Part shown: piece by piece, positions 45,201 through 48,200 of the stretch
How positions within the stretch are numbered: the first letter of the stretch is position 1
How the letters are laid out: the number at the start of each line of letters is the position of its first letter
Assembly: GCA_012295275.1 (NCBI GenBank)
Contig: CM022679.1
Span: forward strand, 11,408,001-11,472,000
Length of the DNA: 64,000 nt
Direction: 5' to 3'
Source of the DNA: Chrysomallon squamiferum
Taxonomy: Eukaryota; Animalia; Mollusca
Translations under genes and position numbers: made by a program
The notes under the pieces: generated by a model
What the model saw: only the letters and a program-made list of their open reading frames with translations
Told to the model about the DNA's origin: nothing
Database searches by the model: none

Positions 45201-48200
45201 GGTAAGTTTTTTTTTTTTTTTATCTTCAATGTATATTTACTTATTTACTTATCCAAACTTCCAGACTACCTGTTTTGTACTGATATTGCATTTGCTATGA
45301 ATATGTTGACTATACACTAGAATTTAATTTAGCAACATCAGATGTAAGTTAAAAATTAACTGGATTTTAGGAAGTTAATTTAGATCTCATGTAATTTCTG
45401 AAATATTCATTGTTAATTCTTTGAATGAGATATAAAAACATTATCTACTGTTATTTCACAGTCACATCTATTATTTGTACTGTTCGTGGTTAAACCTGTG
45501 GTCAGCTTATTTCTGTGAAATGTAATGGCATCTTAGAACATTTATTATGGTTTCAGAAAACCAAACTACAAATTTCATTAAAGTCAATTTAAGAACATTC
45601 ATTTCTTTCAGTTTTTTATCATTACTTTCTGTATCATCATATTAAAGACTGGGTGATTTATACTTGTTCATATATGTTAATGCTGTCACCTGTCGTCCTT
45701 TATATCATTAAAAAAAAAGGACTAATCAGGATTTAAAATATTTTAGATCAGTCTTTTTTTCCAAGTTACCACAACAATGTTTTATCTTCAACAATCAGTT
45801 TTATATAAAATAGGCAATTTTGTTCATTAGTTGTAAAATAATTCAATTTTTGGAATTCTCCATTGATTCACAGATGTATGCACATCTATATATACATACA
45901 TAAATACATACATAATACATATAAACATATAAACATACCTATCAACGTTACCTATTATTTACTACCTTCCTACCCACATCTCTACATACATATGTCCACA
46001 CCTATCCATAGTGATATATGAACATACTCACAAAGCATTAAAAACATTGCAAATCATTAATTCATGTAACAACAAATGTTTCCTTTGTTCATTCCCAGCA
46101 TTACAGTGTGGGCAGCGTCCACTATGGTTTAAAAATCGTCGGAGAAGAGCTACAGAAAATGAATTTATTTACAAAAAAAAAACCATCTCAGTTATCTAAA
46201 GTAGTTGGGGGCAGGATACCACCTTATGGAATGTATCCGTGGCAGACCAGCATTCAGGTTGAGGTTTCGTACTTGAAATCAACACTACACTGGTGTGGTG
46301 GAACCATTATCAGTGAAATATGGATCATGTGTGCAGCCCACTGTTTTAAGTATGTAGATATGTAAATTAATGAACATATAATATAAATGTTCATAAATAG
46401 TTAATGAATATGATAATAAATTGAAACATTATAAATCATACTTGATGAATGATGAAAAACTTAAAGGAAAATAAATAACAGTTATAATGAATGAATAAAG
46501 AAAAATACTGAAGCAAGAATATTGTGATTAGATAAATAAACAAAATCATAATTATAGTATTAAATTATTCATACCACTAATTTTCAAAATGTGATTGTTT
46601 TTGTTTTTTTTCAAAATAAAATAAACAAAAATAAATAACATTTCATAAATAAATGAATATCAGTAATAATTTAGGATTAAGCAATGAATATAAAACACTA
46701 AAATTAATATTTGACAATTAAAACAAAATGTTTTTTCTGTTACAATATTAATACCCATATTAAAAAAAAAAAAAATAGAAAAACCATAAAAGTTAGATTA
46801 TTTTTTTACTTATTAAAAACCTTGTTTAACAGGAGGTAATATTTTGTTTATAATGATTTATTTTGTAAATTATTTCCATTAAAAAAAAAAAAAAAAGTAT
46901 TTTCGTGTTTAATTAAAAATAATTTTATAATAGTACATATAAATTTACCAGATATTTACTTGCTATTTTTTCCTTTTCAATTTATAGGTTTACCATGAAG
47001 CTGTGGGCTGCACAGTAGTTCCAGATTTCACTACCACACCCACACTTTGTCCCCAGTCCCAAAGAACAATACCGAATCTGTAAGAAACTGGCAAAAATGG
47101 CTTACATCTTTTGCAATCTTTTGTGACAAAGGAATTAAGTCATTAGCCCTTTGAACACTATTTGAGAAAAAAAAACGTAATTTCCATGTTGAATAAGGTA
47201 TGCACTGATGATGAATATCAGATCTGACATAAGTGTCAAGAATGTTATTATTCATGACATTTATTTAAAAAAAGAAAAAAGAAAAGAGAATAAGTAAAAA
47301 TACTTTCACATCAATCAATAATATAGTCTTTTCTATTATACATTTTGTGAATTGTAGGTCATCAGGTATGTGGTAAGCAACCAGTTAAACTAATTACCCC
47401 ACGTATAGCAGGTGGATTTCAGGCTACAAAAGGTTCAATTCCTTGGCAGGCTTTTGTTATTAGGCTTAGATCTTCCTGGTTCGAGTATTATTTTGTAAGA
47501 CAGTGTGGTGCAACAATAATTAGTGAATTCTGGATACTTACTGCAACTCACTGCATCATGTAAGTCACAAACTAAGAATAGGTTTATGTCAACATTCTGT
47601 TATTTTAAATTAGAAAAATCACTGTTGTGCATAAAATTTAATCTGTATGATTGTATATATGTATATGTGTGTGTGTGTGTATGTGTGTGTGTATATGTTT
47701 GTATATATATATATATATATATATACACATACACATACACACATACACACACACACACAGACACATATTTTAAGTTCTGATGGTATTCTCTCAAGTTTCA
47801 TTTATTGTTTTATTGTCTATTCCTGAAGTGATAGTTAACCTATAAATTGGAATATGGTAAAGGATTTATATTTATAATCTTGCTTGTAAAATTTACCATT
47901 ATAACGCAGGCTTAATTATAATATATACATTTATATGCTTTGATATCTATAGGATCTGCTGATTAATAAATATTGAATTTACTATGTGCAAGCATAATCA
48001 ATGATCTTACAATGCAAATTAATACAATTTTCAGTAAAATTAAAATATAAATAACAAAATTACAAGTAAAATTTATCAAAATGAACACAAAGCACTTAAT
48101 ATTTCTTCTCTTTATTTTTTTTTTAATTCAAAATTAAAATCTTTTTTTTTTTCATTCATTTTTTTTTTTTTTGAAAAGTGATAAGCAGAAAAAACAAAAC

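Follow-up and report, generated by a model that had tools for sequence, protein, structure and literature searches.

A single SVH-1/neurotrypsin-like gene, lying on the plus strand from about 27,200 to 50,411 of the 64-kb stretch of DNA analysed here (the window), probably splices in one or the other of two exons, A (46099..46349) and B (47358..47559), and so is likely to yield two trypsin-like enzymes with common recognition domains and a common S1 site but with different linkers, activation sites and 30s loops. The reading is built on all four of the expected splice junctions, on reading frames that are open with nine rather than ten A's in a homopolymer of exon A, on intact catalytic triads, and on the presence of the pair in a cuttlefish gene model.

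By the Sepia annotation and by its clusters in the Atlas, the gene is classed as an SVH-1/neurotrypsin-like mollusc protease. Pfam places SRCR, kringle, LDLa, PAN and trypsin domains in the one gene, which is collinear with three mollusc proteins; the full order is a signal-peptide-like exon, SRCR, C-type lectin, kringle, LDLa, PAN, LDLa, eight further SRCRs and trypsin. Upstream of SRCR9 the exons were placed from the sequence, from tblastn with the orthologues and from Pfam, while reads cover SRCR9 onward. The probable first coding exon (27237..27311, beginning MRILIFL, boundary approximate) was placed from the sequence and is followed by the exon cores of SRCR1, the C-type lectin, kringle, LDLa, PAN and second LDLa (28970..35360, some boundaries approximate; tblastn and Pfam) and by the exon pairs of SRCR2 to SRCR9 (35787..45201; Pfam and sequence), with the joint 44466-45014 found in all four transcript runs. 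The second exon of SRCR9 (45014/45015-45201) ends in a phase 1 donor, and the Pfam scan recovers nine SRCR first halves, the number originally counted. SRCR7 to SRCR9 (41700-45201) are recent, near-identical tandem duplicates, and a backward joint, 45186-44316, present in four of four transcript runs, is the SRCR8-SRCR9 junction. The second exon of SRCR6 (40990-41203) carries a cysteine-bearing insertion (CSCRTC...) absent from the other repeats, and the first C-type lectin exon (30130-30135) has no in-frame GT donor nearby, a GC donor being possible.

The rest of the protease domain is encoded by one set of exons common to both forms, each assigned from contigs, alignment and Pfam and all on the same strand: C (48459..48574), with the 60s and 70s loops; D (48935..49099), with Asp102 (DIAL) and Cys122 (PACLP); E (49797..49967), with Asp189 and Ser195 (GDSGGP); and F (50287..50411), the last coding exon, with Gly216, Gly226 and the stop. 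The residue numbering for exons C to F follows the established scheme for S1 proteases. Exactly two PWQ..CG..HC segments occur in the window in its six frames, and these are exons A and B. The original prediction of a single downstream set holds, as does its placing of Asp189 in the common part and the distinction it drew from the whole-domain swap of MASP1/3.

Exons A and B, both on the plus strand, are homologous neighbouring exons with matching splice phases. Their AG/GT boundaries, the SRCR9 donor at 45201 and the shared acceptor at 48459 all proved to be where they had been predicted, and the motifs first noticed, RRRR, K|VVGG, HWCG, PR|IAGG and an aromatic loop, are all present in the window. 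Exon A encodes Cys1, a long linker with a furin-type RRRR, the activation site K|VVGG, PWQ, Cys42 and His57-Cys58; exon B encodes Cys1, a 12-residue linker, PR|IAGG, PWQ, an aromatic 30s loop, Cys42 and His57-Cys58. As read in contigs they are 250 and 202 nt long and both run from phase 1 to phase 2. The phases assigned at the outset are therefore right for B, and for A in the contigs, but not for A as assembled, at 251 nt, where a frameshift had been overlooked. The two encode 83 and 67 codons and are 42% identical in the mature part, and their 3' ends, down to and including the donor, match at 71% as a direct repeat of 63 nt. Both match Pfam Trypsin within positions 1-44 of 220 (2-44 for A, 1-44 for B) and can be aligned to chymotrypsinogen up to residue 58, so that the exchange takes in about 20% of the domain together with the linker, and the 'half' of a trypsin domain of the original prediction was an overstatement. 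The His57 motif is AAHC in A and ATHC in B, and Asp102, Ser195 and the S1 residues Asp189, Gly216 and Gly226 are common; judged by these residues, both forms would carry an intact triad and a trypsin-like S1 site. In exon A of the window the His57 motif is immediately preceded by an additional cysteine (MCAAHC, 46330-46347) that the other aligned A-types lack.

The junction evidence comes from contigs of eight of eleven runs, four of them transcript-derived (X6 to X9) and four DNA-type (X1, X2, X3 and X5). Runs X6 and X9 are recorded as RNA; X7 and X8, which carry no library record and whose RNA origin is deduced from their exact GT..AG joints, are equal in size and may be one data set. Exon A is joined to SRCR9 (45201-46099) in two of the four transcript runs, X7 and X8, and to exon C (46349-48459) in three, X6, X7 and X8, the short side of these A-C joints being only 30 letters; exon B is joined to SRCR9 (45201-47358) and to exon C (47559-48459) in three runs each, X7, X8 and X9. 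The SRCR9-A joint comes from study P1 only, the other three from two studies. Neither an A-B joint nor a direct SRCR9-C joint, skipping both, is listed in any of the four transcript runs, though contigs drop rare forms. The A and B contigs, of 310 and 262 nt, consist of the exon with about 30 nt on each side and make a clean bubble, and in X9 a single unbranched contig of 1324 nt runs from SRCR9 through B to exon F. At the level of contigs, then, the mutually exclusive splicing of A and B that had been predicted is supported.

In X6 the A-C joint is the only one of the A/B set that is listed; set beside the B contig of X9, this hints at a sample-specific choice of exon, although contigs cannot show absence. 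The depth of the A contig against the B contig is 18 vs 8.3 in X7 and 64.8 vs 29 in X8, and the sums of A and B lie near the flank depths (19.5/22.9 in X7 and 97.6/84.7 in X8); the ratio of about 2:1 in favour of A is only a hint, contig depth being a poor measure of level. None of the joints of A or B with SRCR9 or exon C occurs in the four DNA-type runs, and processed pseudogenes were rejected as their source on that ground. A candidate third exon of 92 nt (46988-47079, AG..GTAAG) was also rejected: it is in no joint in four runs and appears in unspliced contigs only, and its Pfam match lies far below the cut-off. This stretch is more GC-rich and could be a regulatory element or a scrap of a mobile element.

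Inclusion of both exons leads to a stop 635 nt before the last junction and skipping of both to one 402 nt before it, in keeping with the claim that either arrangement breaks the frame. Exclusivity would thus be enforced at least partly by frame, transcripts with both exons or neither being likely targets of nonsense-mediated decay. Among the repeats listed, all microsatellite or AT-rich sequence, no docking-selector RNA pairing was conspicuous, and steric exclusion by a distant branch point was set aside as unlikely, the A-B intron measuring 1008 nt and the AG-free stretch before B 29 nt. With neither a pairing element nor a distant branch point evident, frame and decay would be the default mechanism. 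About 100 nt past the B donor a TG/TA/CA microsatellite (47657-47768) could form a 56-nt hairpin, 89% complementary; such microsatellites are common in the window.

The two exon types differ consistently where a zymogen is activated. Linkers of the A type, counted from Cys1 to P1, have 24-36 residues and a furin motif, R-X-K/R-R, in six of six cases, the motif preceding the activation bond by 12-23 residues (by 17 in the window); those of the B type have 12 residues in three of three and this motif in none of the three. The Sepia B exon does have a minimal RXXR (RSQR) at the activation bond itself, so furin independence of the B type may not hold everywhere. The 30s loop, which borders the prime-side subsites, is aromatic in the B exons of the window and the cuttlefish and polar in the A-types; HWCG in A, put forward at first as a likeness to insect Tequila, is common to the cuttlefish and gastropod orthologues, and the S1 site and the 60s and 99 loops are common to both forms. 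By established S1 biochemistry, a furin cut upstream of the activation bond would give a disulfide-linked two-chain zymogen that is inactive until a second cut; coagulation factor X is a two-cut zymogen, and those of the plasminogen type need a single cut. Since in form A the motif precedes the K|VVGG bond by 17 residues, furin alone would not make the new N-terminus, and form A likely needs two cuts where form B needs one. A furin-type convertase would nick form A after RRRR, the chains being held by a Cys1-Cys122 bond, and a second cut at K|VVGG would free a 17-residue peptide, as in factor X; form B would stay a single chain until one cut at PR|IAGG, much as plasminogen does. The proposed contrast between furin and trypsin-like activators accordingly survives in part: RRRR is in A only, but its cleavage would not suffice. 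The differing 30s loops would change prime-side contacts with substrates and inhibitors, and the two forms may differ in substrate surface and in activator.

The exclusive splicing might be real and the two forms nevertheless near-equivalent, or one of them minor or drifting, with little effect of the linker. We consider this improbable, though its probability is not negligible. The functions of A and B are predicted from sequence, A is kept by itself in some animals (L002 and L003, below), and the Hayan isoforms of Drosophila, which differ by a linker insert of 259 residues, show no difference in activation or target in the part of that study available (PMC10732536). Against near-equivalence, B has appreciable contig depth in X7 and X8, rough as that measure is, and is the sole spliced form listed in X9; it has also kept all the structural cysteines and His57, and the cuttlefish shares its 12-residue linker and aromatic loop.

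It is very unlikely that A and B belong to a tandem pair of paralogous genes, one of them missing from or collapsed in the assembly, with near-identical flanks that mimic a bubble. A B-only gene does exist in another animal (L004), and between B and C the DNA contigs are interrupted at 47649-47774 and 48103-48327. Yet one DNA contig of X1 (45922-47649) covers both A and B with the other protease exons absent, its depth, 79.8, is like that of the C-F contig, 79.4 (a weak measure), A and B use one SRCR9 donor and one exon C acceptor, and the exon order is identical in the cuttlefish model. The same X1 contig holds no second protease domain between A and B; in X2, X3 and X5 no long contig covers the two exons, but records there are filtered and this is no evidence either way. 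That either exon is a remnant of a second protease domain since lost, the alternative first allowed for, is not supported, as the X1 contig runs from A to B, both exons are spliced in frame to the common exons and the cuttlefish model has both.

In the window as assembled, exon A shifts frame at a run of ten A's (A10, 46173..46182, plus strand), which leaves the CG-linker with RRRR and the VVGG..HC part in separate frames and brings the SRCR9-A-C reading to an early end. All three long contigs that cross the run, those of X7 and X8 (spliced) and of X1 (DNA), have nine A's, and with one A fewer the exon is open from phase 1 to phase 2. The extra A is likely an assembly error. It may instead be a private null allele of the assembled individual, given that X1 and the window also differ elsewhere. 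That exon A is dead in this lineage or individual, the protein coming from B only, is hardly credible: the frameshift is there in the window itself, and X1, likely another individual or haplotype, cannot speak for the assembled one, but the three A9 contigs, the splicing of A on both sides and its greater depth of the two branches in X7 and X8, the further one-letter differences of the window from X1, X2 and X3 at 48919 and 49559/49560, and the presence of the A type in oyster, gastropod and cuttlefish all tell against it.

Taking A and B, as preferred here, for alternative exons of one gene, we turn to the age of the pair. A protein search with exon E found at least three full-length proteins of matching architecture among the 150 matches listed, all A-type, from Batillaria, Crassostrea and (by cluster) Sepia pharaonis, the last named 'SVH1'. 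In Sepia pharaonis CAE1263504.1, a partial A-type exon is followed by a whole B-type exon and then the shared exons, the product expected from a gene finder faced with A and B in tandem. The evidence for the pair in the cuttlefish is this one chimeric automatic gene model, and the four full-length cuttlefish members aligned from Logan are all A-type. Window B and Sepia B have 44% identity along the aligned exon. A tree of 12 sequences and about 50 columns, built from the mature part only and leaving out L001 (near-identical to L002), L006 and L008, places the two side by side (SH-aLRT 92.4, UFBoot 89), whereas no clade of the A-types has support in it. For the common protease part, identity to the cuttlefish, oyster and gastropod counterparts is 53-58% alike, which indicates that the host and Sepia are not closely related and that the A/B pair is likely very old; a tree of this part did not assign the host to any one mollusc class. 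The two exons would have arisen by tandem exon duplication before the lineages of the host and the cuttlefish split.

The pair is not universal. Four of nine metagenome loci (L001 to L004) belong to this protease family: in L002 and L003 exon A is followed directly by C with no B between, L001 stops before exon C, and in L004 a B-type exon alone (L004:2390-2590) stands between SRCR and C. The contrast of L004 with L002 and L003 suggests that the two isoforms could be resolved into separate genes. Two weak searches for further B exons added little: window B against the longer proteins gave no match among three candidates, and an alignment of two B sequences, searched against short proteins, gave one, with no sign of family membership. 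A search that used the protease domain of the gastropod protein as query was crowded by TMPRSS9/polyserases in the 120 matches listed. Quite tentatively, the splice switch may be older than the split of the mollusc classes, setting a furin-primed two-step zymogen against one that needs a single cut and has a different prime-side surface, under the control of tissue or state; it could divide protease and growth-factor roles, some lineages having later become A-only or B-only.

The mollusc SVH1-like proteins (Sepia CAE1263504/5.1, Crassostrea virginica LOC111121867, Batillaria KAK7482293.1) are alike in domain set and order, though not all have PAN, and against the nine SRCRs here they show 3-6 Pfam stretches. 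The nearest Atlas clusters (0.96) are mostly nematode. SVH-1 of C. elegans, with kringle, PAN-like and protease domains, serves both as a protease and as a growth factor resembling HGF, and its switch from the one to the other alters His755 (PMC11305532), whereas both forms here retain His57; the available text of that paper makes no mention of an alternative activation exon. Amphioxus has proteins with SRCR, kringle, LDLRA, PAN and trypsin domains (PMC6337849). Vertebrate neurotrypsin (PRSS12) is a kringle-SRCR-trypsin protein with an activation site that furin recognises, and co-expression with furin converts it to an active two-chain enzyme (PMC9616769); in form A, by comparison, 17 residues lie between the furin motif and the activation bond downstream of it, and form B lacks the motif. 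Tequila, whose Atlas cluster stands at 0.88, is a multi-domain SRCR/LDLa trypsin (PMC11050137). Tequila-type proteins carry chitin-binding domains, and Pfam finds no chitin-binding peritrophin-A match in the three mollusc orthologues or in the scanned exons of the window, whose 5' exons are partly resolved.

The closest parallel in splicing is MASP1/3, where a C-terminal part of more than 250 residues is swapped, starting at the CG linker (PMC8373072). Both cases have one recognition scaffold and either of two homologous protease parts from that linker on; here, unlike MASP1/3, the exon is internal and His is variable while Asp, Ser and S1 are common. The human alternative-splicing table that lists MASP1/3 has, in the portion available, no rows for PRSS, TMPRSS or trypsin (PMC8373072). 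A survey of mutually exclusive exons in five species gave a mean identity of 67%, a median of 36 residues and nine catalytic-site events (PMC7954323). The words protease, trypsin and peptidase are absent from its main text, and six supplementary files (36,517 characters) gave no match, the gene lists perhaps lying elsewhere. Like those events, PKM and coq-2 of helminths, an enzyme with mutually exclusive exons (PMC7434440), the present gene has tandem duplicated exons of which one is used and part of a catalytic domain is altered; in contrast to the pairs in the available part of the survey, A and B are less alike, longer, and swap a zymogen activation sequence as well. A spliced serpin has been described (PMC10513286), and splicing of Hayan changes the region between the regulatory and catalytic domains, the catalytic domains being identical (PMC10732536). 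An internal exon swap of activation site and His57 in an S1 protease was not reported in the literature searched, which included few subscription papers and is limited evidence.

Two tandem trypsin-like genes lie elsewhere in the window on the plus strand (4850-8350 and 10250-12230), with IVGG/IIGG starts, His57 replaced (SAQC, TAQC) and, in the first, GDLGSP for GDSGGP; by these substitutions they are likely non-catalytic protease homologues. The exons of a cysteine-rich protein gene, presumably RING-between-RING-like, lie on the minus strand at 52500-55800 and converge on the protease gene.

The wiring of serine-protease cascades depends on what cuts each zymogen, and also on the loops that surround the active site. 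The choice of one exon here would alter the activation sequence and a loop and keep the recognition domains and S1 site, a natural domain swap within the trypsin fold, where earlier cases swap the whole domain (MASP1/3) or the linker alone (Hayan). The gene is also a trap for annotation: the cuttlefish model fuses both exons, and the assembly makes the deeper-covered exon A look dead. The nematode member of the family acts in development and axon regeneration, and the ratio of the isoforms can be tested in molluscs, for example in cuttlefish. The animal likely makes two versions of one enzyme that differ in how they are switched on.
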